A DNA stretch of 64,000 bases, from the NCBI GenBank assembly GCA_021199855.1, contig JAJQHD010000009.1:4287-68286 (forward strand), in the 5' to 3' direction. Positions 650 through 59,530 of the stretch are shown here, one piece after another. This DNA comes from Oscillospiraceae bacterium (GTDB lineage: Bacteria > Bacillota > Clostridia > Oscillospirales > Ruminococcaceae). The position numbers and the translations under genes were made by a program. How positions within the stretch are numbered: position 1 is the first letter of the stretch; every line of letters begins with the position of its first letter. The notes beneath the pieces were generated by a model that searched no databases, was not told where the DNA came from, and was given only the letters and a program-made list of their open reading frames with translations.

Positions 650-706
650 GGCTCCCCTTACTAAGGGTGAGCGCAGAAGTTCGCAAGCGAACTTCGACTG
701 AGAGGT
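650..706 (+). repeat. hairpin repeat unit (family A, single unit, variant)
   Basis: GGCTCCCCTTACTAAGGGTGAGC, then the GAAGTTCGC-AA-GCGAACTTC palindrome, then GACTGAGAGGT. Same layout as the units at 14623, 21599 and 37404. Confidence 0.8.
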
Positions 707-725
707 TCACAAAGGGGATTTTATC

Positions 726-1466
726 ATGTCATCATACACTTTTAACGCAGAAAAGGCGGCGAACGCTTGCATCGAATGGATTCATGACTGGTTCGAGAAG
801 AACGGCAAGGACTGCAACGCAGTTCTCGGCATTTCCGGCGGAAAGGACAGCTCCGTCACTGCGGCGCTTCTCGTCAAGGCACTCGGAAAAGAGCGTGTTA
901 TCGGAGTGCTGATGCCGCAGGGCGAGCAGTTCGATATCGGTTATTCAAGAGAACTTTGCGAAATTTTGGGTATCAGGAGTATTCAAGTCAACATCGGCGA
1001 GACTGTCGAGGCTCTTAAAAAGTCTTTGGGCTTCGAGCCGTCGGTCACTACACTCACGAACATCCCGCCGAGAGTCCGCATGACGGTTCTTTACGCAATC
1101 GCTCAGTCGAACAACGGCAGAGTCGCCAACACCTGCAATCTTTCGGAGGACTGGGTCGGCTATGCGACGCTTTATGGCGACGGAGCAGGCGACTTCGGAC
1201 CGATTTCGAACTTCACCGTTCAGGAGGTCAAGGCAATCGGAAGATACCTGGGACTCCCTGAAAAGTTCGTCGAAAAGCCGCCGCTTGACGGTCTTTGCGG
1301 CAAGACGGACGAGGATAATCTCGGCTTCACCTACAAGGCTCTTGACGAATATATCCGGCAGGGTATCGAACCCGAGCCGGAGACAAAGGCGAAAATCGAC
1401 CGCCTCAACAGGCTCAATCAGTTCAAACTCAAGCGTTTCGACACGTTTTCCTACACAGAAGAATAA
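726..1466 (+). CDS. nadE: NH3-dependent NAD+ synthetase
   Basis: PP-loop motif GISGGKDSSV and a length of 246 aa. The conserved NadE body is present (RMTVLYAIAQ, YGDGAGDFGPI). Confidence 0.9.
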   Translation: MSSYTFNAEKAANACIEWIHDWFEKNGKDCNAVLGISGGKDSSVTAALLVKALGKERVIGVLMPQGEQFDIGYSRELCEILGIRSIQVNIGETVEALKKSLGFEPSVTTLTNIPPRVRMTVLYAIAQSNNGRVANTCNLSEDWVGYATLYGDGAGDFGPISNFTVQEVKAIGRYLGLPEKFVEKPPLDGLCGKTDEDNLGFTYKALDEYIRQGIEPEPETKAKIDRLNRLNQFKLKRFDTFSYTEE

Positions 1467-1473
1467 AAAAACA

Positions 1474-1502
1474 CCGGCAGAGAATCCACTCTGCCGGTTT
1501 TA
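1474..1502. terminator. bidirectional intrinsic terminator between convergent nadE and the ABC ATPase gene
   Basis: Perfect 9-bp stem CCGGCAGAG / CTCTGCCGG with loop AATCCA, preceded by an A-run and followed by a T-run. Confidence 0.8.
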
Positions 1503-1520
1503 TTATCGTTTATGCCGAAC

Positions 1521-2189
1521 TTAATCTATGACCTTTCCGTCCTCAATCTTGATAACCACGTCTGCCTTTGCCGCAATTTCCGGGTCGTGGGTGACCATGA
1601 TGAGGGTCTGTCCGAATTGCTGGGCGCAATCACGAAGAAGCTGAATTGTCGTCTCGCCGTTCTTCTTGTCAAGGTTTCCCGTCGGCTCGTCGGCGAAGAT
1701 GAGCTGAGGCTTCGCAAGGACGGAGCGAGCTATAGCAACTCTCTGCTGTTCGCCGCCCGAAAGCTCGGTCGGGTATTTCTTCAGCTTGTCGGCAATTCCC
1801 AGAAGCTCCGTCACGTTCTGCAAAAACTCCGGGTCGGGCTTCTTGTTGTCGAGCTTCATCGGCATACAGATGTTGTTGAGGACGGTGTACTCGTCCAAAA
1901 GATTGAACTGCTGGAAGACAAATCCCATGTGCCTTCTTCTGAACTCCGCCATTTTGGCATCCGGATAAGAGTATAAATCCTCATCTCCGAGGTAGATATT
2001 GCCGGAAGTTGGCTCGTCGAGACCGCCCAAAATATGTAGAAGCGTCGACTTTCCGGAGCCGCTTCGACCGATAATCGTGTAGAAAAGACCCTCCTCAAAC
2101 TCGGCGCTGACGCCGTTCAGAGCGTGGGTTTCTCCCGATTCCGCCTTGTAGGTCTTGTAGATGTCCTTTGCTCTTAATACTGTACTCAT
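1521..2189 (-). CDS. ABC transporter ATP-binding protein (MacB/LolD/FtsE-like)
   Basis: Walker A GRSGSGKST, signature LSGGEQQR, Walker B LIFADEPTGNLD and H-loop VTHD. Confidence 0.95.
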   Translation of the reverse strand: MSTVLRAKDIYKTYKAESGETHALNGVSAEFEEGLFYTIIGRSGSGKSTLLHILGGLDEPTSGNIYLGDEDLYSYPDAKMAEFRRRHMGFVFQQFNLLDEYTVLNNICMPMKLDNKKPDPEFLQNVTELLGIADKLKKYPTELSGGEQQRVAIARSVLAKPQLIFADEPTGNLDKKNGETTIQLLRDCAQQFGQTLIMVTHDPEIAAKADVVIKIEDGKVID

Positions 2190-2234
2190 ATCAATTACTC
2201 CTCTTTTCAGAGAACTTTTTAGTCCTCTTTCAAT

Positions 2235-2263
2235 ATAATACCATATATTTCTGCCGCTGTCAA
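2235..2263 (-). promoter_or_regulatory. putative sigma-A promoter dedicated to the ATPase gene
   Basis: On the minus strand, TTGACA (2263-2258), a 17-nt spacer, then TATTAT (2240-2235), in the 124-nt gap between permease A and the ATPase gene. Confidence 0.5.
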
Positions 2264-2313
2264 CAGTTTTTTACGAACTTTTAAGAATTTCGTTTTGCCG
2301 TTTTCCGGCATTT

Positions 2314-4701
2314 TTACTCATTCTGTAGCATGTCCATCAGCTTGTACTTATTCAGCCCAAGCTTCGAGACGTAGCAGACCACGAACACTATTACAAACAG
2401 TGCCAGCGAGATAAGAAGCATTGTCCATGCTTCTATGTGGAAGCTTGCAAGCTCCTGGAGCTGGCTCCTGAAAGCTGTTTCAATCTCGGCAAGGCTCAGT
2501 GCTGACTCGCTGTCTGTAACGATTTTTAAGATGAGATACCCGAAGTATATTGCCCATCCGGCAACACTCGCAATAGCTCCGCGGATGATAGAGGCTACAA
2601 GCAGTCTGGTGTTTCTCTGCTTGCGGGACATTCCGAGAGCCTGCAGGATGCCGTATTTCTTCTTTTCCCGCTCCGTTTCAAGTCTGATGGTACTCGCGAG
2701 AATCAGAAGCGTTATGAACATGATGCACCCGCCGCTCACCCAGAACATGATAAGGGTCTGGAGATATTCACGTGCTTTGGATGAGTTTTCGGCTCTGTTG
2801 TTCATTGTAATCATCAGGGAATTTGCGTTCATTATCTTTGTGACAGCTTTGTCGGTCGAGAGATATTCGGCATTCATGTCGGTGAAAACGAGAACAGTCG
2901 TGAATCCAGCCGTGTCTCCGGCTGTGTAGGACGTTCCCCACATTGTGCCCTCTGGAAGAGCATCCAGAACCTTCTGCACGAACGCTGTAGAGCAGACTAT
3001 GTCATAGGTTTCGGGATAAAGGCTGTAGTTATAGCCAAGCCCTGATGAGCGGTAGTAGTCGCTCACTCCGCCGACAGTGGTTGTGAATTCTGTTCCAGAA
3101 ATAGTCAAAGTGATTTCATCGCCTGCCGCTGGGACTACCGATTTCGAATCGGTTGTGACCTTCATAAGAATAATGCTATCGCCCGAGTTGAAGCTCTCAA
3201 GGTCGGTGCAGGTGAAGTCTATCATCCCTTTCCAGCTGTCGGCTGAATCGACGACATAGACTGAAACCTCCTGAGCTTCGACTGAATCAGTTGTAAGGGA
3301 AGCCGATTGCTCAGAAAATCCCCATACTCCCGAAACTCCCGGAACAGCGGCAAGCTCACTGATGACATCATCCCCAAGATGCTGACCGGAAAAACTCAGG
3401 GTGTTCATAGCATAGTAGGAATATGTGGTTGTGTAGTATGTATAGTCAAAATACGGATCGAGCGAAAAGATGGTCGTGAAGACAACTGCCGAGCAGAAGA
3501 CAACACACATCGCTATAATCAAGCCTTTCTGGAATCTGCGGGAGAACTTTTGTTTTCCAACCTGCATTTCCATCCTGCCGGTAAGCGGAGTTGCGATGGA
3601 AATCTGGAACATAATCATCTTGACTATAAGAGTTCCCAGAATCCAGAGGAGTAAGAACATACTAAGATTCTTCCACGGAATACTCACTATAATTGCAATA
3701 GAGCCGGAGAAGACGCTTACCCTCAGCAAAATCCAGATGCCGATTGCACCGACAACAATTCCCGCAAGGAGAGATGGGATGCAGAGTATCAGCGTTTCAA
3801 CGGTCACCAAAAGCCTTATCTGTCCCTTGGATGCTCCAAGGCTTCTGAGCCGTACTGTTCTTCTTATGTCCGACTGCATCTGGAGGATATAGACAACCAC
3901 AATCGCTAAGATCGCAACTGCAAAGATAAGCCAGATGTAAACAGAGTTGAATTCCGCCTCGCTGTGATCCTGATAGGCATAGGAATTGAGCTTGACCTGC
4001 TTTCTGCTTGAGGCTACGTTTGAAGCCCTCGATTCCGAAAGATATGTATTGACTTCATCCGAAACGGTGTCCTCCATGCCGCTGGTGACGGTGAAGAAGT
4101 AGGAGACACTCGGAGTGACACCGTCAAAAATAGCCTCTGCGTCCTCTTCAGTTATAATTGCGCTGTTCAGAGTGTCGGTATAGTCCCAGAGGGTGGTGTA
4201 GGTTGAAATTACACCGGTCAGGGTGAAATTATGATAGATTATTTTATCATCGGATATTGTTATCGGCAGGGTGATTGTCTCTCCGATGGTGTAATCATAG
4301 CCGAGCTTATTGAGCACAGCCACTTCGACAGCAATCTCTCCGCTGTTCTCGGGAAGAGTTCCTTCCTCCAGATGGATTCCCATTTCAACGAATGCATCAT
4401 CGACCGTTCCGATTCCCTTGCCATTTACGGTGCCATATGTGACACTCTCGCCAACCTCATCAGCCCATTCAGTCGATTCAAGATACTCCGCGTCTCCATC
4501 CTGACCATAAACAATAGAGCCGTACCATGAGCCATAGATCGAGAAGCGATACTCCCGATTGGTCATCGCAATGCTGTTGGTGTAGCTTAGTAGCATGACA
4601 GCAAACGCAAACGTCACCATGAGTACAAGCACTATGAGAAGATTCTTCTTCCGCTTCCTCCATAAGCCCTGCACTGAAAGCTCAAAGATTGTTTTCAGCA
4701 T
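2314..4701 (-). CDS. FtsX-family ABC permease, double-FtsX type (paralog A, 795 aa)
   Basis: N-terminal TM helix after a basic RKRKK patch, a large extracytoplasmic domain, two TM bundles each with an FtsX-type ...G..KGQIR.../...LQALGMSRKQR... loop. Homologous to the ORFs at 4708 and 8919-11507. Confidence 0.9.
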   Translation of the reverse strand: MLKTIFELSVQGLWRKRKKNLLIVLVLMVTFAFAVMLLSYTNSIAMTNREYRFSIYGSWYGSIVYGQDGDAEYLESTEWADEVGESVTYGTVNGKGIGTVDDAFVEMGIHLEEGTLPENSGEIAVEVAVLNKLGYDYTIGETITLPITISDDKIIYHNFTLTGVISTYTTLWDYTDTLNSAIITEEDAEAIFDGVTPSVSYFFTVTSGMEDTVSDEVNTYLSESRASNVASSRKQVKLNSYAYQDHSEAEFNSVYIWLIFAVAILAIVVVYILQMQSDIRRTVRLRSLGASKGQIRLLVTVETLILCIPSLLAGIVVGAIGIWILLRVSVFSGSIAIIVSIPWKNLSMFLLLWILGTLIVKMIMFQISIATPLTGRMEMQVGKQKFSRRFQKGLIIAMCVVFCSAVVFTTIFSLDPYFDYTYYTTTYSYYAMNTLSFSGQHLGDDVISELAAVPGVSGVWGFSEQSASLTTDSVEAQEVSVYVVDSADSWKGMIDFTCTDLESFNSGDSIILMKVTTDSKSVVPAAGDEITLTISGTEFTTTVGGVSDYYRSSGLGYNYSLYPETYDIVCSTAFVQKVLDALPEGTMWGTSYTAGDTAGFTTVLVFTDMNAEYLSTDKAVTKIMNANSLMITMNNRAENSSKAREYLQTLIMFWVSGGCIMFITLLILASTIRLETEREKKKYGILQALGMSRKQRNTRLLVASIIRGAIASVAGWAIYFGYLILKIVTDSESALSLAEIETAFRSQLQELASFHIEAWTMLLISLALFVIVFVVCYVSKLGLNKYKLMDMLQNE

Positions 4702-4707
4702 TTCAGA

Positions 4708-7326: not shown

Positions 7327-7484
7327 TTATATCGCCCCCTAAAGTAGTGGAAATAAATATTAATTACAACCGTTGCAAGTAATAAATGATTCTGCATCAT
7401 TAAATATATATATTCAGCCCCGCGACCCTTTCCGCTAATCTGTGCACCGATAGCGGGAAGTCTCGACAAATGGACTGTAAGCTC

Positions 7485-7513
7485 ATGGTATCAAAAATCA
7501 AAAACATTGTCAA
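7485..7513 (-). promoter_or_regulatory. putative promoter of the permease B/A operon
   Basis: On the minus strand, TTGACA (7513-7508), a 17-nt spacer, then TACCAT (7490-7485). It lies 7 nt from the tandem palindrome. Confidence 0.5.
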
Positions 7514-7520
7514 CGTCCGA

Positions 7521-7559: not shown

Positions 7560-7568
7560 TTTCAAATC

Positions 7569-7597: not shown

Positions 7598-7646
7598 GTA
7601 ATGGTAGTCCTAAGGCTATAAATAAAATCTATGAGAGGTAATTATA

Positions 7647-13375: not shown

Positions 13376-14572
13376 TTAGTCTTTCAGTGTAAGAAGGTCG
13401 GAGAAAAATCTGTTCATTTCCTCTTCGGTGTCGAAGACGGCGGTGTACATCTGGTTGGACATTGCGTCCGCCAGAGCGTCGGGAATTCTTCCCCACATAC
13501 GCATATTCGGACCGTACTTCGCCATGATGGCTTCGTGGTTCAGGTTGAACTCCATTCCGTCACGTCTGCCGCAGAAGGCGCAGAACTTGCGAACCTTGTA
13601 CGGGTCGGAAGAAGGCTTGTTGAAGGCAATCATATCCGCCCAGAGCTTGTAGACGTCCGTTTCATAGGCATAGTCGTACATATCAGGAGTGTAGCCGCCT
13701 GAAGGTCTCATATTTACCTCAAGACCCACGATGTCGCCCTTCTTGCCCAAGCCCTCTTGATCGGCGTTCAGAACGAAGTATTCGAGATGGATGAACCTTG
13801 CCTTGACACCAAAAGCCTTGACGGTGCGGTGCCCGATGTCGATAAGCTCGTCCGGGAGCTGGGGTACTATATAATAGATAGTGTTTCTTGCCTCGTTGAC
13901 TACGTCCATGAGAGAGTCGGGAGTGATATTGCCCGATTCAAAGATGGGCTCGCCGTCCTGGTCGATGATGGCGTCGTAGGTTCTGACATAGCCGTTGACA
14001 AACTCCTCCATGATGTAGACTTCGTCGTCCTTGTGCTCGAAGAAGAATTCGAGCTCCTCGTCATTGCTGAGCCGATATGTATGGCTCGCACCGACGCCGT
14101 TGTCCGGCTTGACGATAACGGGATAGCCGACAGTGTCGATGAACTCCCTTGCGTCGTCGATGGCGTCGATGACATGATACCTCGCCGTCGGGACACCTGC
14201 CTTCTTGTAGTACTCTTTCATCAGGGACTTGTACTTGACGTGGGAGATGTCGTCATCTTTGAAGCCGGAGGTGATGTTGAACTCGGTGCGAAGATGCGCA
14301 TTCCTTTCGAGCCAGTACTCGTTGTTAGACTCCAGCCAGTCAATCTTGCCGTACTTGTAGGTGAAGAAGGCAACCGCCTTGAACACTTCGTCGTAGTTTT
14401 CGAGAGTCGAGACCTTGTAGTACTCGTCGAGGCTGTCCCTTAGGTGCTGGTCGAGCTCCGCATAAGGGCAGTCGCCGATTCCCAGAACTCTCAGTCCATT
14501 GTTTTTAAGCTCCGCACAGAACTTCCAGTAGGTCACCGGGAAGTTTGGAGAAATAAAGATAAAGTTTTGCAT
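13376..14572 (-). CDS. ATP-grasp domain protein
   Basis: 398 aa with an ATP-grasp-like central fold (GYPVIVKPDNGVGASHTY...IMEEFV...HLEYF...GLEVNMRPSGG). The substrate is unknown. Confidence 0.75.
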   Translation of the reverse strand: MQNFIFISPNFPVTYWKFCAELKNNGLRVLGIGDCPYAELDQHLRDSLDEYYKVSTLENYDEVFKAVAFFTYKYGKIDWLESNNEYWLERNAHLRTEFNITSGFKDDDISHVKYKSLMKEYYKKAGVPTARYHVIDAIDDAREFIDTVGYPVIVKPDNGVGASHTYRLSNDEELEFFFEHKDDEVYIMEEFVNGYVRTYDAIIDQDGEPIFESGNITPDSLMDVVNEARNTIYYIVPQLPDELIDIGHRTVKAFGVKARFIHLEYFVLNADQEGLGKKGDIVGLEVNMRPSGGYTPDMYDYAYETDVYKLWADMIAFNKPSSDPYKVRKFCAFCGRRDGMEFNLNHEAIMAKYGPNMRMWGRIPDALADAMSNQMYTAVFDTEEEMNRFFSDLLTLKD

Positions 14573-14622
14573 TGCATGTCATATCCTTTCGATTCTATAA
14601 AAAGTAGTGATGGAACAGGTAT

Positions 14623-14671
14623 GGCTCCCCTTTATAAGGGGAGCTGTCAGCCGTAAGGCTGACTGAGAGGT
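14623..14671 (+). repeat. hairpin repeat unit (family A, single unit)
   Basis: GGCTCCCCTTTATAAGGGGAGC TGTCAGCCGTAAGGCTGAC TGAGAGGT. It fills the space between the esterase stop and the ATP-grasp gene. Confidence 0.85.
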
Positions 14672-14672
14672 T

Positions 14673-16168: not shown

Positions 16169-16250
16169 ATCAAATTCCCCTTTGAAATTTTTGTTGCTTA
16201 TAATAGTATAGTTTTCTTCCGATGAAATGTCAAGAAGTTCGATAAAAAAA

Positions 16251-16397
16251 CGTCCCTGCGGGGCGCCCTCTCAGTCGCCTGACGGCGACAGCTCCCCCAA
16301 AGGGGGAGCCAAGTAGTGTTATCCACCGTCAATCTTGGCTCTCCCTCTGGGAGAGCTGTCAGCGAAGCTGACTGAGAGGGCGCGACCGTAGGGAACG
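16251..16397. repeat. composite hairpin repeat (family A, inverted double unit)
   Basis: Left half CCCTCTCAGTC...AGCTCCCCCAAAGGGGGAGCC, right half GGCTCTCCCTCTGGGAGAGCTGTCAGCGAAGCTGACTGAGAGGG. Outer arms CGTCCCTGCGGGGCG / CGCGACCGTAGGGAACG. Confidence 0.85.
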
Positions 16398-16404
16398 ATT
16401 TGCC

Positions 16405-21564: not shown

Positions 21565-21598
21565 ATTTAACTCCCAACTGTTGCAAAGACGCATTTAT

Positions 21599-21646
21599 GG
21601 CTCCCCTTACTAAGGGGAGCTGGCGCACGAAGTGCGACTGAGAGGT
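21599..21646 (+). repeat. hairpin repeat unit (family A, single unit)
   Basis: GGCTCCCCTTACTAAGGGGAGC TGGCGCACGAAGTGCGAC TGAGAGGT, between the nitroreductase stop and the next gene start. Confidence 0.85.
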
Positions 21647-21657
21647 TCTCCCTCAGT

Positions 21658-25051: not shown

Positions 25052-25142
25052 AATAGAAGTTCCTTTCAAAAAAGTGCTACTATAATAGTAGCAGAAATCG
25101 AAGGAAAAATCAAGATACAGAATGAGGGATAGTGGGGAATTT

Positions 25143-25397
25143 GTCGGCACTGCCGACGATGTCGCCGCCGAAGGCGACGACGCCGCTCCCTGCGGTCGCG
25201 GCACCTCTCAGTCGCCTTCGGCGCCAGCTCCCCTTAAAAAGGGGAGCCAGTAGTTTTCTTCCGAAAGCTTCTGCTATAGCGCAAAGTTATCCAGGGCGCA
25301 AAAAGGCTCCCCTTATCAAGGGGAGCTGGCAGCCCGCAGGGCTGACTGAGAGGTGTGCCGACCAACGGGAGGCACCGACTTGGCGCTAGCCAAGTCG
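25143..25397. repeat. composite hairpin repeat (family A, inverted double unit plus accessory hairpins)
   Basis: GTCGGCACTGCCGAC, GTCGCCGCCGAAGGCGAC, CACCTCTCAGTC..AGCTCCCCTTAAAAAGGGGAGCC, a 55-nt core, GGCTCCCCTTATCAAGGGGAGC..GCTGACTGAGAGGTG, GTGCCGACCAACGGGAGGCAC, GACTTGGCGCTAGCCAAGTC. Confidence 0.85.
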
Positions 25398-26405
25398 TTA
25401 TGGGATTTCAATAACTTCCTCCCCAACCCTAATTGCCACCACTTCATCCAAATCGATTGGCACTTCCCAGAAGCAATAGCAGTCGACAATGCCGGTGGAG
25501 CCGGAGCTGGATGTGGAGTTGACTTGCATCTCGGTTCCGTCTTCCATTACGGCGTAAATCTTCATGTGGTTGTAGCGGATGATTCTTGGGACATCGTCCG
25601 ATTCGCTGTCATAGGTGGCGACGATTCCGAACTCCGTGACGGTAAATTGGGTTACACCTGTCCACGGCAGGTTTTCCGTAATGTCGATTGTCTTCGTTTC
25701 GGTTCTTTCGAGTGTGAATTCAAAGCTCCATTCGCTGTTACCGGAGTACCAGATTGGAGAGCCGTCTTCGTTTGAATATATGAGAGCATTGAGATTTCCG
25801 AGATGGATGCTCACATCAAGCGGTTCATCGCTGTCAATGTTCGTGAGGTTGATTTTGTCGAGAAAGTACGCTTTCCCGTTTTCGTCAACGGCAATTCTGC
25901 CCATACCGCCGCCTTTGCGATTTGAGTTGACATAAACCTCCCAGATTCCGAACGAGCTTGTGCCGGTGGTTGTGAACTTGCCGCTGTCACATTCCGCAGT
26001 AATCATAACGTACGCAACATCGTCGCCGACCGTCGCCGAGTCTATACTCACGGTGACACCGTCCGAGGTTTCACTCAGCCCGATATACTGGCTCAGGCTT
26101 GCAATCGTTTCATAGTGCTCGTCGCTCATCTCTTCGCCGGTGACCTCTTCCCATCGGGTCTTGAACCAGCCGTCGATGCTGTCGCTGGCGGCGACGAAGC
26201 CTGCACCCATCAGCATGACTACCGCCACTACAGCCGCAAGTATAACCGGGTACTTTCTCAATCTCTTTTTGAAAACCGCATTTTCTCTCCCGAGCTTCGT
26301 ATTTGTGAGTGCACAGACCCGGTCGTCGCTCGATGTTGGAACATCTTTAAGCTTTATATTTTCGTCACTGTAGCAGTCGAAAACGTCTTTAAGATTCACA
26401 TTCAT
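25398..26405 (-). CDS. anti-sigma factor-like single-pass membrane protein (DUF4179-like)
   Basis: Start overlaps the sigma gene stop by 4 nt. Short cytoplasmic N-terminus, TM helix (YPVILAAVVAVVMLMGAGFVAA), beta-rich ectodomain. Paralog of 27152..28621. Confidence 0.7.
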   Translation of the reverse strand: MNVNLKDVFDCYSDENIKLKDVPTSSDDRVCALTNTKLGRENAVFKKRLRKYPVILAAVVAVVMLMGAGFVAASDSIDGWFKTRWEEVTGEEMSDEHYETIASLSQYIGLSETSDGVTVSIDSATVGDDVAYVMITAECDSGKFTTTGTSSFGIWEVYVNSNRKGGGMGRIAVDENGKAYFLDKINLTNIDSDEPLDVSIHLGNLNALIYSNEDGSPIWYSGNSEWSFEFTLERTETKTIDITENLPWTGVTQFTVTEFGIVATYDSESDDVPRIIRYNHMKIYAVMEDGTEMQVNSTSSSGSTGIVDCYCFWEVPIDLDEVVAIRVGEEVIEIP

Positions 26406-27076: not shown

Positions 27077-27104
27077 GTAGGGGCGGATATTATCCGCCCG
27101 CTAC
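27077..27104 (-). terminator. family B hairpin (GGGCGGATATTATCCGCCC) acting as terminator of the sigma/anti-sigma pair 2 operon
   Basis: GTAGGGGCGGATATTATCCGCCCGCTAC. On the minus strand the hairpin is followed by TTTTTTT. Confidence 0.7.
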
Positions 27105-27123
27105 CCAAAGTCGTCTGTTTTTT

Positions 27124-27147
27124 CGGGCGGATATTATCCGCCCCTAC
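27124..27147. repeat. family B hairpin copy
   Basis: CGGGCGGATATTATCCGCCCCTAC, 4 nt downstream of the anti-sigma 2 stop. Near-identical to 49081-49104. Confidence 0.8.
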
Positions 27148-29172: not shown

Positions 29173-29254
29173 CACCATCACCTCCAATTAGAATTTGAAA
29201 ACGTTTTCATACTTATAGACACCGATTTTTGCGGGTGGGATTCAAAATTCCCAC

Positions 29255-29290
29255 AAAAACCAGCCCCAACTTCAAAGAGTCAGGGCTGGA
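29255..29290 (-). repeat. 36-bp direct repeat copy 1, a terminator hairpin after vapC
   Basis: AAAAACCAGCCCCAACTTCAAAGAGTCAGGGCTGGA is identical to 30021-30056. The minus strand reads CCAGCCC..GGGCTGG followed by TTTTT. Confidence 0.85.
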
Positions 29291-29296
29291 ATAAAA

Positions 29297-29728
29297 TTAA
29301 TCTTCAAAATCTTCTGCTTCAATAGTTTTGATAAACTCCGTCGGAGTGAGAACTCGGACTGATGAGCCCTTGAAATCCTTTATATTGCGTGTGATGATGC
29401 AATCAACTTTGCAACGTACTCCTGTTTCAATCATAATAGCATCTTCAAAGTCTGAAACATCGGAAGTCAGTGCATGAAATATATCTTCTGCTGTAGTATC
29501 AAGAAGTATAACAATCGAAAGTAGCTTGTTCAGATTCGCCCTGCTTTCCTCCTCACTGTGAGTGCATCGGCGAGTAAGATAGTGAATGTCAGCCGCTGAT
29601 TTTGCGGTTATATATCCATCGAACTCGCCAGTGATTGCCAAACGGAGAACGGTATAAGCGTCATCAAAAAACGGTTGGCGATTTTGGAGAAGGTCCATTA
29701 TGACGCAGGTATCAATCAAAGCAGTCAT
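29297..29728 (-). CDS. vapC: PIN-domain toxin (VapC-like)
   Basis: MTALIDTCVIMDLL... carries the PIN N-terminal acidic motif. 143 aa, overlapping the antitoxin stop by 4 nt. Confidence 0.8.
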   Translation of the reverse strand: MTALIDTCVIMDLLQNRQPFFDDAYTVLRLAITGEFDGYITAKSAADIHYLTRRCTHSEEESRANLNKLLSIVILLDTTAEDIFHALTSDVSDFEDAIMIETGVRCKVDCIITRNIKDFKGSSVRVLTPTEFIKTIEAEDFED

Positions 29729-29940
29729 ATCTTACTGAGCCTCTCTTCTCTTGCTTCTTCGAGCGTCATAGTAGCCGGAACACTTCCCGCCAATTCGTTA
29801 AGAATTTTTAGCTTGTCTTGATACGGAGATGTAAGCTTGGCAATAGTTTTACCATTACGGGTGATGTAGACATCCTCGGTTGCGGCTAAGACGAGATATT
29901 TACCGAGATTAGCTTTCAGCTCGGTTGCGGTGATAGACAT
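29725..29940 (-). CDS. Phd/YefM-type antitoxin
   Basis: MSITATELKANLGKYLVLAATEDVYITRNGKTIAKL is typical of Phd/YefM. AGGAGG lies 7 nt upstream of the ATG at 29940. Confidence 0.8.
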   Translation of the reverse strand: MSITATELKANLGKYLVLAATEDVYITRNGKTIAKLTSPYQDKLKILNELAGSVPATMTLEEAREERLSKI

Positions 29941-30020
29941 GGAAACGCCTCCTTTCAGGTTCTGATAATAGTATACCACAATCGGACGATTTCGTCAACA
30001 GTTTCGGACGATTTTTCAGT

Positions 30021-30056
30021 AAAAACCAGCCCCAACTTCAAAGAGTCAGGGCTGGA
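30021..30056 (-). repeat. 36-bp direct repeat copy 2, a terminator hairpin after the acidic protein gene
   Basis: Identical to 29255-29290. Confidence 0.85.
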
Positions 30057-30081
30057 TTTAGTGATATGCTATTTTTGGAAA

Positions 30082-31470: not shown

Positions 31471-31599
31471 CCTATTGCCCTTTCCGAAAAAATCTGCACT
31501 TAAATTATAATCTTATCGTCGCCAATTTTCAAGAGTAAATTTAAGATTTCGTGCTTATTTCATGTTGATTTCACAAACAGAGTTGCGCATTTCGGCAGC

Positions 31600-31818
31600 A
31601 TCGCGCTCGCCTTCGGCTCGCGCACCTCTCAGTCTGCCCTGCGGGCAGCCAGCTCCCCTTAAAAAGGGGAGCCAGAATTGTTCTCCCGAAAGCTTCTGCC
31701 AAAGCACAAGGCAGCATTTTGCGATTAAGGCTCCCCTGTCAAGGGGAGCTGTCACGCGAAGCGTGACTGAGAGGTTCGCCGACCAAAGGGAGGCGCGTCG
31801 CCGTAGGCGACTGAGGGG
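31600..31818. repeat. composite hairpin repeat (family A, inverted double unit)
   Basis: GCGCTCGCCTTCGGCTCGCGC, ACCTCTCAGTC..AGCTCCCCTTAAAAAGGGGAGCC, a core with CCGAAAGCTTCTGC, GGCTCCCCTGTCAAGGGGAGC TGTCACGCGAAGCGTGAC TGAGAGGT, and GTCGCCGTAGGCGAC. Confidence 0.85.
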
Positions 31819-31893
31819 TTTCTAAAACCTCTTGCATATCTCCCCGAAATGTGCTACACTATACCTGATAACTCAATCGAAGGGAGCGATACC

Positions 31894-37379: not shown

Positions 37380-37403
37380 TATAACCTATCCTTTCTTAAT
37401 TTT

Positions 37404-37474
37404 GGCTCCCCTTGATAAGGGGAGCTGTCAGCCGCAGGCTGACTGAGAGGTTCGCGAGCCCGAAGGGCGAGCGC
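37404..37474 (+). repeat. hairpin repeat unit (family A, single unit plus accessory hairpin)
   Basis: GGCTCCCCTTGATAAGGGGAGC TGTCAGCCGCAGGCTGAC TGAGAGGT, then GCGAGCCCGAAGGGCGAGC. Confidence 0.85.
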
Positions 37475-37476
37475 CT

Positions 37477-39384: not shown

Positions 39385-39429
39385 GAAGTTCGGCGAAGCC
39401 GAACTTGCTGACTTGGCGCTAGCCAAGTC
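39385..39429. repeat. accessory hairpins of repeat family A
   Basis: GAAGTTCGGC-GAA-GCCGAACTT and GACTTGGCGCTAGCCAAGTC. The latter is identical to 25377-25396. Confidence 0.7.
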
Positions 39430-39575: not shown

Positions 39576-39940
39576 CTGCGAGTAAGCTATACGGCAGCGG
39601 ACACGTTCGTTTGCTATCGCAAGCGAGGTGGATGAGGAAAGTCCGAGCATCACAGAGCAAAACAGCTGATAACGTCAGCCGAGGGCGACCTTAGGGAAAG
39701 TGCAACAGAAATAAACCGCCGATTTTATATCGGTAAGGATGGAAAGGCGAGGCAAGAGCTCACCGGAACGTGGGAGACCACGTTGCCATGTAAACCCTGT
39801 TTGATGCAACACCGTTTGGAACGGAATACCAACGTCTGCTCGGCGGGTATTCTGTAATAGGTGGCTTGAACTCTTCGGCGACGAAGAGTCTAGATAGATT
39901 GCCGTACACGACAGAACTCGGCTTACAGGCTTAGTCGCAG
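39576..39940 (+). ncRNA. rnpB: RNase P RNA
   Basis: Conserved P4 strands GAGGAAAGTCCG (about 39634) and ACAGAACTCGGCTTACAG (about 39911). P1 pairing is CTGCGAGTAAGC / GCTTAGTCGCAG. ORF 39675..39992 is spurious. Confidence 0.85.
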
Positions 39941-40015
39941 AGATTGAATAATAACCCTTGGAAAAAGGAAAAATAAAAATATTATCCTGCATTCCTGCAG
40001 GAAACGGAGGCTTTT

Positions 40016-44918: not shown

Positions 44919-44978
44919 CATATAAATATGCAAAAAATTCCTCTTGACAAAGAGGAAAAGATGGCATATAATAATGAC

Positions 44979-49062: not shown

Positions 49063-49767
49063 TCAGTCTCCCAGAGGTTGCGGGCGGATAATATCCGCCC
49101 CTACAGAATATCCGACGCCGTGCTTCGTAGTGATGAAATCTTCAAGTCCCAGAGCGTCCAGCTTGCGGCGAAGCCGATTGATATTGACGGTCAGGGTGTT
49201 GTCGTCGACGAAGCTGTCCGTTTCCCAGAGTCTCTGCATCAGCCTCTCCCGGGAAACGGTTTTGCCCTTGCTTTCAAGAAGCGTGAAGAGAATCCGGTAT
49301 TCGTTTTTGGTGAGGTCAATCTTTTGCCCGCCGAAAACTGCGCTCGAATCCTCAGTCCTGAGACTCAACCCACGGTGTGAGAGAACCGGGCTTTCGGTGT
49401 AGTTGTAGCTCCGGCGGAGAAGTGCCTGCACTTTCGCCGTCAGCACGCTCATGTCGAACGGCTTTGCGATGAAGTCGTCGGCACCCATGTTGACAGCCAT
49501 GACGATGTTTAAGTTGTCCGACGCCGACGAGATGAAGATAATCGGCACGTTTGAAATCTTGCGAATCTCCTCGCACCAGTGGTAGCCGTTGTAAAAGGGA
49601 AGCATTATGTCGAGAAGCACGAGCTGGGGCTGTACTTCTGCAAATTCTCCGACAATATCAGAGAACTTCGTCGCCACCCGGCACTCGAAGCCCCATTTTG
49701 TCAGCTCCGCCGCCACGCCCTCCGCAATGCTTCTGTCGTCCTCGGCTATATAGATTTTGTAAGTCAA
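49063..49767 (-). CDS. OmpR-family response regulator (BceR-like) with a repeat-encoded C-terminal tail
   Basis: Receiver domain (YIAEDD...LLDIMLP) plus winged helix (...TKHGVGYSV). The last ~12 codons (GADIIRPQPLGD) are encoded by the family B hairpin. Confidence 0.9.
   Translation of the reverse strand: MTYKIYIAEDDRSIAEGVAAELTKWGFECRVATKFSDIVGEFAEVQPQLVLLDIMLPFYNGYHWCEEIRKISNVPIIFISSASDNLNIVMAVNMGADDFIAKPFDMSVLTAKVQALLRRSYNYTESPVLSHRGLSLRTEDSSAVFGGQKIDLTKNEYRILFTLLESKGKTVSRERLMQRLWETDSFVDDNTLTVNINRLRRKLDALGLEDFITTKHGVGYSVGADIIRPQPLGD
49081..49104. repeat. family B hairpin copy inside the response-regulator 3' end
   Basis: CGGGCGGATAATATCCGCCCCTAC. Compare with 27124-27147 and 27077-27104. 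Confidence 0.8.
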
Positions 49768-50657: not shown

Positions 50658-50733
50658 AGCGTGATTCTCCTATAGCTTTTGGAAGTCAAAATTTCCTCTT
50701 GACAAAGAGGAGAAAGTGTCATATAATAAAAGT

Positions 50734-51067: not shown

Positions 51068-52249
<1,182 letters not shown>

Positions 52250-52254
52250 GGGGA

Positions 52255-52409
52255 AACCTCTCAGTCGCCTTCGGAAGTTCGCTTGCGAACTTCAACGCTC
52301 ACCCTTAAAAGGGGAGCCAGTAGTGCTAGTCACAAAAAGGCTCCCCTAATTTAGGGGAGCTGGCAGCCACGAAGTGGCTGACTGAGAGGTGCGTCCCCAT
52401 AGGGGACGC
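52255..52409. repeat. composite hairpin repeat (family A, inverted double unit)
   Basis: ACCTCTCAGTC, GAAGTTCGCTTGCGAACTTC, CTCACCCTTAAAAGGGGAGCC, spacer, GGCTCCCCTAATTTAGGGGAGC TGGCAGCCACGAAGTGGCTGAC TGAGAGGT, GCGTCCCCATAGGGGACGC. Confidence 0.85.
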
Positions 52410-52448
52410 GTCGCCGCCAGCCGACAACATTACAAAGGATGGTGAACC

Positions 52449-53117
52449 ATGAAATCCATAATTTTTGACCTCGACGGCACCCTTGTCGACACTGCTGAAG
52501 ATTTGGGAGACAGCGTCAGTGCGGCTCTCACTGAGCTTGGGCTTCCCATACATACTACTGAGGAGTACATCTCATATGTCGGCAACGGCACTTTGATGCT
52601 GGTGAAGCGCTCTCTGCCGGAAAATCTCCGGGAGGATGAAGAACTACTTAACAAAGCCCACGAGCTATTCTGCGATTACTATGCCAATCACTATCTCGAT
52701 AAATCCCGGGTTTATGATGGTATTCCCGAAGTAGTGAAGACTTTGAAAGATTCGGGACTCAAGCTCTACGTCCTGACGAACAAGCCCTATCAGTTCGCAA
52801 GCAAGATAATTGAGGAGTGCTTTCCGACCGGCATTTTTGAGCTAGTCGCCGGAAGCGGACAGGGCTTCCCGCGTAAGCCCGACCCGAGCTATGAGAACCA
52901 TCTGATTGAGCTTTCGGGCTCGGACAAGTCGGAAGTCATCCACATCGGCGACTCCGGCACCGACATCGAAACCGCCCACAACGCCGGAATAAAGTGCATC
53001 GCCTGCACCTGGGGCTTCCGAAGCCGCCAGTCGCTTGTTGAGGCGGGAGCGGAGTTTATAGTGGATGAACCGGGAGAGATTTTGAGAATTTTAGGGCGGC
53101 TTAATTCGGGATTATGA
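52449..53117 (+). CDS. HAD-superfamily phosphatase (phosphoglycolate phosphatase-like)
   Basis: IIFDLDGTLVDT motif I, LTNK motif II and GDSGTDIETA motif III. Confidence 0.85.
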   Translation: MKSIIFDLDGTLVDTAEDLGDSVSAALTELGLPIHTTEEYISYVGNGTLMLVKRSLPENLREDEELLNKAHELFCDYYANHYLDKSRVYDGIPEVVKTLKDSGLKLYVLTNKPYQFASKIIEECFPTGIFELVAGSGQGFPRKPDPSYENHLIELSGSDKSEVIHIGDSGTDIETAHNAGIKCIACTWGFRSRQSLVEAGAEFIVDEPGEILRILGRLNSGL

Positions 53118-53257
53118 ATTCGGAATGCGGAATTCGCTCCCTGCGGTCGGCGAAGCCGACAACTGTCAACAAATCACAAATTCCCTCTTGATTTCGTTCA
53201 AAAAATGTGTTATAATTGCCATTACAACGAAATTATCTTGTATAGGAGGATAAATTT

Positions 53258-53887: not shown

Positions 53888-53981
53888 TTTTTCCATAAAG
53901 AGGGCGGAAACGTCCTCTTTTTTCTGAAATTTTTGTGAAAAAACTGTTGCAATCGGCTTTAAGGCGTGATATAATAACCAT

Positions 53982-54228
53982 GTATTTGAAACGCTGTGAC
54001 GAAGAGAGTAGAGGGCAGGGTGCTTTAAAGAGAGTCCCGCACGGTCTAGAGCCGTTGCTGAGAGCGGGGTAATCCATCTTCCATCGAAGTTCACTTCCGA
54101 GCGGTTTTGCTGAAGCTTAAGATAGTTGTAGGCGAAAACGGTTACGCCACGTTAAGGCGTTAAGGAGTGTCGGCTCCCGAAAATGGGTGGTTGCAGGCTA
54201 GGCTTATCCCGTTTGGGATGAGCTATTT
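53982..54228 (+). promoter_or_regulatory. T-box leader (Phe specifier) controlling pheST
   Basis: Promoter TTGCAA-17-TATAAT (53947-53975). AGAGA/AGTA stem I motifs. Specifier candidate GAAG-TTC-A (TTC 54090-54092). T-box core AATGGGTGGTTGC (54182-54194). Terminator GCTTATCCC-GTTT-GGGATGAGC followed by a T-run (54201-54228). Confidence 0.8.
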
Positions 54229-54270
54229 TTATTGCTACCGCTATATCCTCGACAGAAAGGAAATGAAATC

Positions 54271-55293
54271 ATGATTAATCAAGACCTTCAGGACATTGAA
54301 AGACGGGCAAAAGAGGAGCTCGAAAAAGACCAGAGCGCCGCTGAGCTTGAAAATCTTCGTGTCAGATTTTTAGGAAAGAAGGGCGAGCTCACCGCAATTT
54401 TAAAGCAGATGTCGACTCTTCCTCCGGAGGAAAGACCGGTTGTCGGTCAGCTTGCCAACAGAATCAGAGCTAACATCGAGCAGGCTATCTCCACTAGAGG
54501 CGCAGAAATTCTCGCTATCTCTGCTGCAAAGAAGCTTAATGACGAAAAGCTCGACGTAACTCTTCCCGGACATCATCACGACATCGGAAATCTCCACCCT
54601 ATCAACTCAGTTTTGCATGAAGTTGAGGAGATATTCTTAGGTATGGGATTCAGTATTGCCGAAGGTCCCGAGGTCGAGTATGACTACTATAACTTTGAGG
54701 CTCTTAACCTTCCGCCAGATCATCCCGCAAGAGATACTCAGGACACATTCTATATTTCCGATAAGGTGCTTCTCAGAACCCAGACTTCCGCAATCCAGAT
54801 TCGTGTCATGGAAAAGCAGAAGCCGCCAATCAGAGTTATCGCTTCGGGAAGAGTTTATCGCTCCGACGCTGTCGACGCCACTCACTCTCCGATATTCAAT
54901 CAGGTCGAGGCACTTGTAGTCGACAAGGGAATTACGATGGGAGATTTAATCGGAACATTACAGCTTCTCATGAAGAGACTTTATGGCGAGGACGCAAAGA
55001 TAAGACTCAGACCGCACCACTTCCCGTTCACCGAGCCTTCTGCCGAAGTAGATATCCAGTGCTTCAACTGCGGCGGCAAGGGCTGTAGCATGTGCAAGGG
55101 CGAGGGCTATGTCGAGCTTCTGGGCGCCGGAATGGTTCACCCGAAGGTTCTTGAAACCTGCGGAATCGACTCCACCGTTTACTCCGGCTTCGCTTTCGGC
55201 TTGGGACTTGAAAGAATCGCAATGCGTAAATACGGAATCAACGACATGAGGCTTCTCTATGAGAACGACCTGAGATTCCTTGAACAGTTCTGA
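54271..55293 (+). CDS. pheS: phenylalanine--tRNA ligase alpha subunit
   Basis: HPARD, FRVYR-type motif (GRVYRSD) and class II motifs 2 and 3 (GFAFGLGLERIAM). Start set at the ATG at 54271, downstream of the T-box terminator. Confidence 0.95.
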   Translation: MINQDLQDIERRAKEELEKDQSAAELENLRVRFLGKKGELTAILKQMSTLPPEERPVVGQLANRIRANIEQAISTRGAEILAISAAKKLNDEKLDVTLPGHHHDIGNLHPINSVLHEVEEIFLGMGFSIAEGPEVEYDYYNFEALNLPPDHPARDTQDTFYISDKVLLRTQTSAIQIRVMEKQKPPIRVIASGRVYRSDAVDATHSPIFNQVEALVVDKGITMGDLIGTLQLLMKRLYGEDAKIRLRPHHFPFTEPSAEVDIQCFNCGGKGCSMCKGEGYVELLGAGMVHPKVLETCGIDSTVYSGFAFGLGLERIAMRKYGINDMRLLYENDLRFLEQF

Positions 55294-55308
55294 GGGAGGG
55301 TGAAATAG

Positions 55309-57699: not shown

Positions 57700-57710
57700 T
57701 AATTATCGAG

Positions 57711-57745
57711 TCTTCGGGAGGGAAAATCCTCCCGGAGGCTTTTTA
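57711..57745 (+). terminator. pheST terminator
   Basis: Stem CTTCGGGAGG / CCTCCCGGAGG with loop GAAAAT, followed by TTTTT. Confidence 0.75.
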
Positions 57746-57894
57746 TATCCCACAAACCCGCATGGGACGTGGATTTTTCAAGAAAAAATCATAAAATAAT
57801 CGGCTAAAGCTCTTGCTATTTTACTCGCAAAGGGTTATAATAGGTGTATCGTTTAGTGGAGAACGAGGTAATCTTTAAAAAGGAGCTGACCCAC

Positions 57895-58140
57895 ATGCAT
57901 GACCAGACAATGACATTTTCTGTGAAACAGGATCGTAAAGACGAGATTAAGAATACTCTCAACATCGTGTATGAGGCACTTCTTGAAAAAGGCTACAATC
58001 CCGTCAACCAGATTGTCGGTTACATTCTTTCGGAAGACCCAACCTATATAACCACCTACAACAACGCAAGAAGCCTCATCCGTCACATCGACCGTGACGA
58101 GCTTTTGCAGGAAATGGTTAAGAGCTATCTCAATTCGTGA
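57895..58140 (+). CDS. ireB: IreB-family regulatory phosphoprotein (UPF0297)
   Basis: TMTFSV...[55 protein letters not shown] is the highly conserved UPF0297 core. AAAGGAG RBS. Confidence 0.9.
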
Positions 58141-58353
58141 GATTTAAAATTTGCAGGTTCGTTGTTCATATTTTTCCTATGTGCAAGAAGAGCTGTACCA
58201 ATTGGTGCGGCTCTTTTTGTAATCATTCTGTAGTTGTATTTTTATGTCGGATTTTGTAAAATAGTAATAGAAGAAACTGCCGATTATATTTCGGCTGACG
58301 TGTGAGATATTATTTACGCGAGAAATTCGCAATTTTATAAGGAGGGAACGATA

Positions 58354-59349
58354 TTGAGAAAAGCAAAATTAGTTGCACTCTTGACAGTCTGTGCACTTTT
58401 ATCTGGACTTCTAGCCGGTTGTGCCGAAATATCCGATGGCTACTACAGCGACGGCACCCAGGCGACGACTTCTGAGACCACTACAGCTCCGGAAGTAACC
58501 ACTTCTGAAGCCACAACCACCGAAGTCACTACAACCGAAGCAGTAACCACAACAGAAGAAATCACCACAGTTCCCGAAGAGACCGAGCCGGAGGAGTCCT
58601 CCATCAGTGATATTGAAGAACTGGTTGAGCCGATTTCGACCGAGTCTGAGTGGGATTACTCCACACTCTCGACTGAAGGAAGCGGCTACGGGCAGGGAGT
58701 CAGGTTTGACGACCTCAACCGCCCGAAGGGAGCCCTCAACTTCAACGAGGCATACGGGGAGTACAACGCCGGGGCGATTCAGGAGACCGAAGAGAAGACC
58801 ATCATGCTTACTTTTGATGAGGGCTACGAGAACGGCTACACCGCCGCAATTCTTGACACCCTTGCCGAAAAGGGCGTGAAAGCCATCTTCTTTGTCACCT
58901 ATGACTATGTTTCGAGAAACCCGGAGCTGGTGCAAAGGATGATTGACGAAGGACACACCGTCGGTAGCCATTCCTGGCACCACTACTCGATGCCGGAGCT
59001 GACGGTGGAGGAGATGATGGAAGAAATCATGTATCTTCACGACTACATGATTGAGAACTTCGGTCTTGAGATGACTCTCTTCCGCCCACCGAAGGGCGAA
59101 TACTCAGAACTCAGCCTTGCCGTGACAGCGGATTTGGGCTACAAAACGGTCCTCTGGAGCTTCGCCTACGCCGACTGGGACACCGACGACCAGCCCGACC
59201 CGGAGGAATCGCTCCAGAAGCTCATCGACCGAGCCCACCCCGGCGCCATCTATCTTCTCCACGCCGTATCCGAGACCAATACGGAGATATTGGGGGAGTT
59301 TATAGATGAGGTGATATTTGAGGGATATACTTTCGTATCTGGGAATTAG
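58354..59349 (+). CDS. polysaccharide deacetylase (CE4, PdaA-like) lipoprotein with a Thr/Glu-rich linker
   Basis: TTG start after AAGGAGGG. Lipobox LLAGC. NodB motifs TFDEGY and HSWHH. The linker is TTSETTTAPEVTTSEATTTEVTTTEAVTTTEE. Confidence 0.85.
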   Translation: MRKAKLVALLTVCALLSGLLAGCAEISDGYYSDGTQATTSETTTAPEVTTSEATTTEVTTTEAVTTTEEITTVPEETEPEESSISDIEELVEPISTESEWDYSTLSTEGSGYGQGVRFDDLNRPKGALNFNEAYGEYNAGAIQETEEKTIMLTFDEGYENGYTAAILDTLAEKGVKAIFFVTYDYVSRNPELVQRMIDEGHTVGSHSWHHYSMPELTVEEMMEEIMYLHDYMIENFGLEMTLFRPPKGEYSELSLAVTADLGYKTVLWSFAYADWDTDDQPDPEESLQKLIDRAHPGAIYLLHAVSETNTEILGEFIDEVIFEGYTFVSGN

Positions 59350-59530
59350 CAGTTCGCCTTCGGCGAACTGCGCGCCTCCCTTCGGTCGGCGCACCTCTCA
59401 GTCTCGCCTGCGGCGAGCCAGCTCCCCTTGATAAGGGGAGCCTTTTTTGGGGAGCACCGCTGGCTCCCCTTTTTAAGGGGAGCTGTCAGCGAAGCTGACT
59501 GAGAGGTGTGCGAGCCCGTAGGGCGAGCAC
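59350..59530. repeat. composite hairpin repeat (family A, inverted double unit)
   Basis: GCAGTTCGCCTTCGGCGAACTGC, CACCTCTCAGTC..AGCTCCCCTTGATAAGGGGAGCC, spacer, GGCTCCCCTTTTTAAGGGGAGC TGTCAGCGAAGCTGAC TGAGAGGTG, GCGAGCCCGTAGGGCGAGC. Confidence 0.85.

Follow-up and report, generated by a model that had tools for sequence, protein, structure and literature searches.

The DNA analysed here is a 64,000-nucleotide stretch of an Oscillospiraceae bacterium genome (GenBank assembly GCA_021199855.1, contig JAJQHD010000009.1, positions 4,287 to 68,286 of the forward strand), which we call the window. Between its genes, among them nadE, copA, pulA, pepV, rsmE and tgt, lies a real and abundant family of small, intergenic, hairpin-forming DNA repeats, here named family A. 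Core units occupy nine sites, all of them intergenic: four single units, each on the plus strand (4/4), and five head-to-head doublets, with spacers of 20-55 nt and with two arms that differ in the sequence of their second hairpin. The copies lie strictly between genes and mostly right against a stop codon (Table 1). An earlier reading made from the sequence alone (the sequence-only reading) had listed these copies, and all of its coordinates hold, as does the gene context that it gave, according to the Pfam matches of the neighbours; its count of at least ten intergenic sites, on the other hand, comes down to nine with core units, since 39386-39429 and 53130-53160 carry accessory hairpins only. 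Relatives of the CopA protein of the window, 90-95% identical, come from metagenome-assembled genomes (MAGs) labelled Oscillospiraceae bacterium, and the host is therefore an uncultured genus of this family.

A unit is laid out as GGCTCCCC(TT)-loop-(AA)GGGGAGC, the linker TG, a variable hairpin 2 and the tail GACTGAGAGGT, and hairpin 1, hairpin 2 and the tail together form a core of 45-50 nt. Hairpin 1 is a GC-rich stem of 9-10 bp, and the tail is an invariant, single-stranded sequence of 11 nt. Conservation of sequence covers hairpin 1, the TG linker, the base of hairpin 2 (G-K-C...G-A-C) and the tail; beyond its base, hairpin 2 is kept in structure alone, with 98 distinct versions in 185 units. 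The hairpin bricks are also found alone and in varied combinations, in agreement with the modular build proposed earlier, and the cores are decorated with further small hairpins. The accessory hairpins reported before were confirmed, at 25377 and 39410 and at 676 and 52274. Hairpin 3 (e.g. GCGAGCCCGAAGGGCGAGC) is a stem with a tandem G.A internal loop and not a perfect palindrome. Predicted folds of the units consist of three hairpins, with z-scores of -4.8 to -7.6. The flank positions are not conserved, and no conserved flanking tetranucleotide stands beside the units; GTAG was seen only in some doublet spacers and not at the 5' foot of the core, which starts with GGCTCCCC. A hammerhead-like reading of the motif CTGAGAG was rejected by eye, as it does not fit CUGANGA.

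We ran a covariance model, built from 41 input units, on the window with filters off. As a result, the model returned 12 full units (55-66 bits, E <= 1e-12), two divergent units (648-707, plus strand; 52255-52320, minus strand) and one partial unit of hairpin 2 and tail only (31790-31820, plus strand), which corresponds to a density of about one unit per 4.6 kb. The same model gave a single weak match in 847 kb of control contigs. This control consists of the more distant relatives (proteins about 55-64% identical) that were all a metagenome scan for close relatives returned, and these contain no units apart from that match. This gives 14 units at nine sites in the window against one match in the control. 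The string TGAGAGGT occurs 14 times in the window, where 2.2 occurrences are expected; 12 of the 14 lie inside units, and the other two (7632, 42788) are ordinary ribosome-binding sites. Indeed, throughout the window the 8-10-mers of the core are confined to units, and none was found within genes. The repeats also yield spurious open reading frames (ORFs), of which 25132-25389 and 59346-59597 are present as described before, whereas 31555-31755 has stop codons on the plus strand. Homologues of such a spurious ORF, sought as a proxy for the spread of the family, were absent from the protein collection, and the ORF had no Pfam match.

The pairing of hairpin 2 is maintained by compensatory changes. 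The variable nested pairs are Watson-Crick in 91% of cases, versus 41% when partners are shuffled (shuffle maximum, 49%). In a model-based alignment of 150 units, 94.9% of the cells are paired versus 81% after shuffling, and both sides have changed in 211 cells versus 57.6 expected. The covariation score of this alignment is 0.406 versus 0.164 for shuffled partners, a value that 0 of 500 shuffles reach, and slid controls score 0.093 at most. The alignment leans towards structure because it was fitted to the model, but the Watson-Crick count, which was made independently, agrees with its result. The former statement that stems are kept while loops vary therefore stands for the stems; the loops are constrained, since a C(GNA)G triloop closes 133 of 182 hairpins (73%; GAA 70, GCA 26, GTA 25 and GGA 12), and C(TNC)G closes 0 of 182. 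Mismatches in hairpin 2 are nearly all G.A, with few A.C or C.A and never C.T or T.C, and G.T pairs make up only 1-3%. Both the loop type and the mismatch type are thus strand-dependent features of the unit.

DNA mini-hairpins of the GCGNAGC type are extraordinarily stable, while their RNA counterparts are much less so, and they are known from single-strand priming sites and from the promoters of phage N4 (PMC13037366). One explanation for the units would be that they are DNA signals beneficial to the host, either binding or loading sites on single-stranded or supercoiled DNA, for instance for priming or for gyrase or nucleoid proteins, as proposed for bacterial interspersed mosaic elements (BIMEs), or uptake sequences. 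It would suit this explanation that C(GNA)G mini-hairpins mark such priming sites and N4 promoters and bind single-strand binding protein poorly (PMC13037366), and that hairpin 1 and the tail keep their sequence throughout an order. We nevertheless regard it as very improbable, given that syntenic 22-kb stretches within the genus hold anything from 0 to 6 copies, that the units show no strand bias by GC skew, that 847 kb of relatives gave only the one weak match, and that the motifs never lie within genes of the window, unlike uptake sequences. The uptake-sequence version was rejected, as every core 8-10-mer in the window is inside a unit.

Comparison of ten syntenic loci in eight genomes of the same genus (fetched loci and contigs carry the label L and a number) established that copies are gained, lost and replaced at orthologous junctions within one genus, so that the insertion polymorphism which the sequence-only reading had wished to see checked does exist. 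Between tgt and the HAD gene, L206 and L208 read GGAGGACTGAcaATG, with a spacer of 2 nt, where the window carries an insertion of 199 nt immediately behind the TGA. The genes of esterase 1 and esterase 2 overlap (ATGA) in five genomes, and only L202 is filled, by an insert of about 95 nt with ACTAT on both sides, which recreates a TAG stop at one side and the start codon at the other and has its closest paralogue (95% identical) at another place of the same MAG. At the nitroreductase/CmpB junction, nothing is inserted in L200 and L203; the window, L199 and L202 carry a unit, L204 has one that points the opposite way, and L201 holds a different repeat. At copA/esterase, doublets of the kinds A'/A (window and L201), A/A (L205) and B/A (L199) alternate with a single B unit (L203) and a plain terminator hairpin (L200, L202). 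The esterase 2/ATP-grasp junction is filled in the window and L199, with TATAGAA on each side, is empty in L202, L203 and L205, and carries other hairpins in L200 and L201. Furthermore, the 25143 doublet is 94% identical to its orthologous copy in L090/L199 and absent from L202 and L203; the left arm of the 59350 doublet is kept in L206, where a B-type unit replaces the right arm; L208 has a B-type unit at the 53130..53160 site; and L090/L199 and L206 carry A/B doublets, without flanking duplication, at two sites that are empty in the window. Since copies within one genome are 80-94% alike and orthologues about 94% alike, most copies are old and their turnover is moderate.

The junctions of these insertions are inconsistent, and a target-site duplication of fixed length was rejected. 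The target ends in CTGA at three insertions and there resembles the start of the tail, which is only a lead because TGA is also a stop codon. A recurrent Shine-Dalgarno brick at the downstream end, hinted at by three insertions, was likewise dismissed, with 3 occurrences near units and 26 elsewhere. One observation concerns the leader of pheS (53900-54232), which resembles a T-box riboswitch, with GGGTGGT followed by a terminator hairpin and a T-run, though it was not among the hits of the Rfam gathering scan; in L206, the leader terminator and the pheS start are separated by an inserted A/B doublet. Another concerns the 3' end of the esterase 2 gene in L200 and L201 (L200, about 14108-14160), where an accessory hairpin, CTACTTGGC-TAA-GCCAAGTAG, holds the esterase stop codon in its loop, so that insertion of the hairpin has given the protein a new C-terminus.

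[quoted passage not shown] The arms of the doublets are indeed inverted, A/B doublets end in AAACCCCTC...GAGGGGTTT, direct repeats surround the inserts in L202 (ACTAT) and at 14621 (TATAGAA), and the element is common to hosts and phages, as is the case for catalogued MITEs (PMC11602168). However, the two direct repeats differ in length, the insertions at tgt/HAD, in L090 and in the pheS leader show no duplication, singles insert by themselves, and the arms of a doublet differ in hairpin 2 sequence. Neither a full-length parent element nor a transposase was found in about 3 Mb of loci, and the core is conserved order-wide, whereas 97% of the catalogued MITE clusters are genus-specific (PMC11602168). 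An origin of this kind is thus quite unlikely.

We then examined how far the family extends. An exact-pattern scan with one genome per species gave at least 117 stretches with the core. Among the genome matches listed, nearly all are Oscillospiraceae, Ruminococcaceae or 'Clostridiales' MAGs from human, rabbit, rumen and chicken gut, and they include Faecalibacterium prausnitzii UT1 and Lawsonibacter; a few bins of Bacteroides, Collinsella and Megasphaera also matched, most likely because of wrong binning. The same pattern occurs in at least 120 stretches of IMG/VR viral contigs. The 120 listed (L209-L328) hold 154 units in 1.0 Mb, every one of them single, with 1-4 units per contig, adjoining capsid, tail-chaperone and terminase genes; many of these units have a conserved upstream extension of about 100 nt that ends in TGCCAAG directly before GGCTCCCC. 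Five unannotated faecal contigs matched among the GenBank phages, and the plasmid collection gave no credible match to the core pattern. The same core has thus spread across Oscillospirales and their phages. It is embedded in different composites in different lineages: A/B doublets are common in close relatives, and in Faecalibacterium a B''-type unit is linked to an A unit via CTTGGCA-N21-TGCCAAG. Similarly, the spacer of the tgt doublet was found again in L018, indicating that doublets are recurrent composites.

The orientation of the units was compared with local GC skew and with the neighbouring genes. The common orientation of the four singles in the window, noted before, is true for n=4 but does not generalise to a replication-strand bias, and the strand bias relative to the replication origin that was to be looked for did not appear: the genomes gave 67 units in one orientation versus 80 in the other. 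At co-oriented sites in genomes, 52 units are antisense and 30 sense (63% antisense), and 24 of the 134 classifiable sites lie between divergent genes. In the phage contigs the split by GC skew is 110 versus 25, that is, in 110 of 135 phage units the top strand of the unit lies on the C-rich strand and is mostly antisense to the phage genes. Because of this antisense bias, selection may also act on RNA. It could act against the Shine-Dalgarno-like GAGAGGU in mRNA; alternatively, it could favour hairpin 1 with a U-run as a terminator.

A stronger form of this idea is that the units are selected cis-acting RNA hairpins of 3' untranslated regions, acting in termination, exonuclease block or processing, with their spread as a by-product. 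In addition to the antisense bias in genomes and phages and to the compensatory changes that preserve pairing, it draws on the stop codons that are adjoined at all nine sites of the window, on the T-run that follows hairpin 1 on the reverse strand in some copies (59441-59448, 25295-25304 in the window) and on a plain, hairpin-1-like terminator in L201 and L203 where L202 has the hairpin 1 of a unit. However, an A/T-run stands beside hairpin 1 in only about 10-20% of units (five or more A in the 7 nt before hairpin 1 in 16 of 167), divergent genes flank 24 of 134 classifiable sites, the unit has the other orientation at 30 of 82 co-oriented sites, and close relatives lack the unit at the same junction. 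Moreover, the asymmetry of loops and mismatches tracks the unit and not the mRNA strand, G.U pairs are nearly absent, and no Rfam family matches. We therefore consider a primary role as an RNA element unlikely.

Taken together, we read family A as a non-autonomous, insertion-polymorphic and modular mosaic of hairpins that resembles repetitive extragenic palindromes (REPs) and BIMEs but has its own architecture, with a probability of roughly 0.6. The DNA-type loops, the nearly exclusive G.A mismatches and the near absence of G.T pairs, together with the occurrence in both orientations to transcription and between divergent genes and with the untidy junctions, suggest an enzyme that acts on the folded top strand, and we infer that the element is mobilised as folded single-stranded DNA. 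In such a mechanism, a trans-acting enzyme of the host or of a phage would recognise the folded top strand through the sequence of hairpin 1 and the tail and through the shape of hairpin 2. Like HUH/Y1 enzymes on REPs and in IS200/IS605, it would copy or move the element in single-stranded form and leave no target duplication of fixed length. Selection would then retain only those insertions that spare both neighbouring genes, and copies with a T-run after hairpin 1 were probably taken over as terminators. Selection best accounts for the location right beside stop codons; at the tgt/HAD junction, for instance, only three insertion points are compatible with both genes.

Several results weigh against this REP/BIME-like reading. 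Nearest-neighbour folding energies do not separate the two strands of the unit, and the genomes lack the replication-strand bias that an IS200/IS605-type mechanism predicts. The orientation is biased against transcription, with the antisense excess in genomes and the skewed split in phage contigs. No transposase was found within the window by Pfam, and clustering of the ORFs at 117 genome loci and of the ORFs within 1.5 kb in 120 viral loci revealed no transposase-like family that recurs beside units. In addition, the copies of one genome are fairly diverged (80-94% alike), and the junctions are untidy, with direct repeats of 5-7 bp at two singles (ACTAT, 5 bp; TATAGAA, 7 bp) and no target duplication at the three doublet insertions.

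Family A belongs to a known kind, the interspersed extragenic hairpin repeats, and has unusual features within it. As in the REP, BIME and REPIN systems of E. coli and Pseudomonas (PMC2817692, PMC5581495), short GC-rich extragenic palindromes sit after stop codons, so densely that a whole genome would by extrapolation hold hundreds of copies, with frequent inverted pairs of short spacing, mosaics of several hairpin types, no fixed target duplication and sister types that occur next to each other (A, B and B'' in family A; Y and Z in REPs). In contrast, family A lacks GTAG (GTRG) beside the palindrome and consists of two unlike hairpins and an invariant, unpaired 11-nt tail in place of one palindrome, with a sequence-free hairpin 2 and with doublet arms that are not copies of each other; its host is a Gram-positive anaerobe, phages carry copies, and no REP-associated tyrosine transposase (RAYT) was found in the window or the fetched loci. 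RAYT group 1 is present in Clostridia, but a link to REPs exists for groups 2 and 3 only (PMC5581495). With bacterial MITEs (Correia/NEMIS, RUP and the cMITEs and vMITEs of PMC11602168), the family shares the small size, non-coding nature, intergenic location and insertion polymorphism, the inverted arms of its doublets and the occurrence in both hosts and viruses; it differs in an inconsistent or absent target duplication, the absence of a parent IS from the about 3 Mb of loci, single arms that insert alone, and the order-wide core.

The BOX elements of Streptococcus pneumoniae (PMC3049150) likewise combine a few kinds of brick in variable number, in a Gram-positive host, at intergenic locations and with predicted stable stem-loops, but they have no sequence similarity to family A and consist of 45-59-nt blocks in the fixed order A-B(n)-C, whereas the bricks of family A are hairpins of 15-25 nt around a fixed core. 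Palindrome-associated elements (PATEs), which derive from IS200/IS605, also have hairpins that differ between the strands, singles without terminal inverted repeats and no fixed target duplication; family A differs from them by the lack of a conserved tetranucleotide at its ends, of a strand bias by GC skew and of a TnpA or TnpB gene nearby. Intrinsic terminators share the GC-rich hairpin 1 and, in a minority of copies, the reverse-strand T-run after it, but most copies have no T-run, and copies also lie between divergent genes and inside operon junctions. Family A is unusual in its order-wide 45-nt core, in a freely covarying hairpin capped by loops of the DNA mini-hairpin type, in bricks that are also found on their own, in its presence in phages, and in insertions that are tolerated in tight operon junctions.

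The earlier view of family A as REP/BIME- or MITE-like and without a named family has held up. In the Rfam gathering scan of the whole window only RNase P passes, and an E-value scan of 25100-25420, which holds one doublet, gave at best chance matches to miRNA models that stay far under threshold. The strings of the core are in no open-access paper or preprint, and searches of the literature on MITEs of Oscillospiraceae and repeats of Faecalibacterium gave no description of the family; they turned up a single related work, a bulk catalogue of MITEs from prokaryotes and viruses, which names Faecalibacterium once (PMC11602168).

As a further and tentative proposal, somewhat unlikely at present, the core might be the module that a conserved partner in Oscillospirales or their phages recognises. 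This partner, a domesticated single-strand DNA transposase or another nucleic-acid enzyme, would read the sequence of hairpin 1 and of the tail and the shape of hairpin 2, folded as a DNA mini-hairpin, and would thus form a second, independent system analogous to REP/RAYT. If true, dominant Gram-positive gut anaerobes would possess a REP/RAYT-like system. In the human gut, Oscillospirales, with Faecalibacterium as one of them, rank among the most abundant bacteria, and about one copy per 4-5 kb would shape their genomes. The repeats interrupt assemblies, as contigs end at them (Logan contig L118 stops at one), burden annotation with spurious ORFs, enter operon junctions and connect phages to hosts; since closely related species do not share all their units, these could be used to mark strains. 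With its order-wide core, covarying hairpin and DNA mini-hairpin loops, the family offers a concrete system for REP-like recognition and movement outside Proteobacteria.

The individual sites of the window differ in detail (Table 1). In the 648..707 unit, hairpin 1 is formed by GGCTCCCC..GGGTGAGC, and GAAGTTCGCAAGCGAACTTC stands in place of hairpin 2. The tail of the 14621..14672 unit ends 1 nt off the esterase stop codon, and at the 16245..16400 site hairpin 3 and a T-run come after the copA stop codon. The spacer of the 31596..31820 doublet is homologous to that of the 25143 doublet. The 37402..37475 unit has a predicted three-hairpin DNA fold with z = -4.85, the right-hand tract of the 52250..52448 block brings a new Shine-Dalgarno sequence for the HAD gene, and in the left arm of 59350..59532 hairpin 1 is followed by TTTTTT.

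Table 1. Family A sites and units in the window, with tandem heptamers in the window and in genomes of the same genus (CM, covariance model)
Feature	Position	Strand	Description	Relation to genes	Evidence
Site	648..707	+	Divergent single	DUF1294/nadE junction; sense to flanking genes	CM, sequence, neighbour Pfam
Site	14621..14672	+	Single	Esterase 2/ATP-grasp junction; antisense to both	
Site	16245..16400	- then + (arms)	Head-to-head doublet	copA/esterase 1 junction	
Site	21597..21657	+	Single with short inverted tail copy	Nitroreductase/CmpB-like; antisense to both	
Site	25143..25397		Head-to-head doublet, 55-nt spacer, 2-3 accessory hairpins per outer side		
Site	31596..31820		Head-to-head doublet with extra hairpin 2/tail module	Divergent region rsmE/deaminase	
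Site	37402..37475	+	Single with hairpin 3	pulA/pepV junction; antisense to both; adjoins pulA stop	
Site	39386..39429	+	Accessory hairpins only, AAGTTCGGCGAAGCCGAACTT and GACTTGGCGCTAGCCAAGTC	Upstream of pulA	
Site	52250..52448		199-nt inserted block: doublet and right-hand tract	Precisely between tgt stop and HAD start	
Site	53130..53160	+	Brick fragments: inverted hairpin-3-like piece and GTCGGCGAAGCCGAC	Past HAD gene	
Site	59350..59532		Head-to-head doublet with accessory hairpins	Between convergent genes	
Divergent unit	648-707	+			CM, 21.3 bits
Full unit	14621-14672	+			CM, 66.4 bits
Full unit	16265-16312	-			CM, 55.2 bits
Full unit	16335-16381	+			CM, 56.4 bits
Full unit	21597-21647	+			CM, 62.1 bits
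Full unit	25202-25250	-			CM, 63.7 bits
Full unit	25303-25355	+			CM, 60.6 bits
Full unit	31623-31675	-			CM, 60.5 bits
Full unit	31727-31776	+			CM, 65.7 bits
Partial unit	31790-31820	+	Hairpin 2 and tail		CM, 19.3 bits
Full unit	37402-37452	+			CM, 65.7 bits
Divergent unit	52255-52320	-			CM
Full unit	52337-52391	+			CM
Full unit	59392-59444	-			CM, 58.0 bits
Full unit	59460-59508	+			CM, 65.1 bits
Tandem heptamers	53117-53140				
Tandem heptamers	L201, ~13515-13560				
Tandem heptamers	L204, ~670-720				
Tandem heptamers	L207, 5265-5300				

Other repeats and elements were observed in the same DNA. A second repeat family, GTAGGGGCGGATAWTATCCGCCC, whose hairpin carries GTAG at the 5' foot, is present as an inverted doublet (27077-27147) and once singly at 49076-49104, within the 3' end of the ORF 49063-49767. 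It also occurs in L201 (3142-3200, 8666-8735) and L203 (2883-2901) and varies between species of the genus. By the definition of REPs and REPINs, this second family is a much better match than family A, and it hints that the genome may encode a RAYT. Tandem heptamers (GAATTCG/GAATGCG/ATTACGC) are intergenic and lie beside hairpin repeats in several genomes of the genus, and a 42-nt repeat pair (44933-44974 and 50688-50729, 88% identical) belongs to neither family A nor family C.

A bacterial class A RNase P RNA (39579-39941, plus strand; Rfam, 258 bits) lies 150 nt from two stand-alone accessory hairpins. At 29250-30060, a cassette of about 770 nt encodes a PIN-domain toxin (29297-29728, minus strand) together with a small ORF upstream. 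On either side of the cassette stands the same 36-nt terminator hairpin, as a perfect direct repeat (29255-29290 and 30021-30056), and the close relative L090 lacks the cassette. Finally, an ORF of 1404 residues (59572-63786, minus strand) has no Pfam match and contains internal repeats (60577-60708 and 61057-61188) with about 92% DNA identity.

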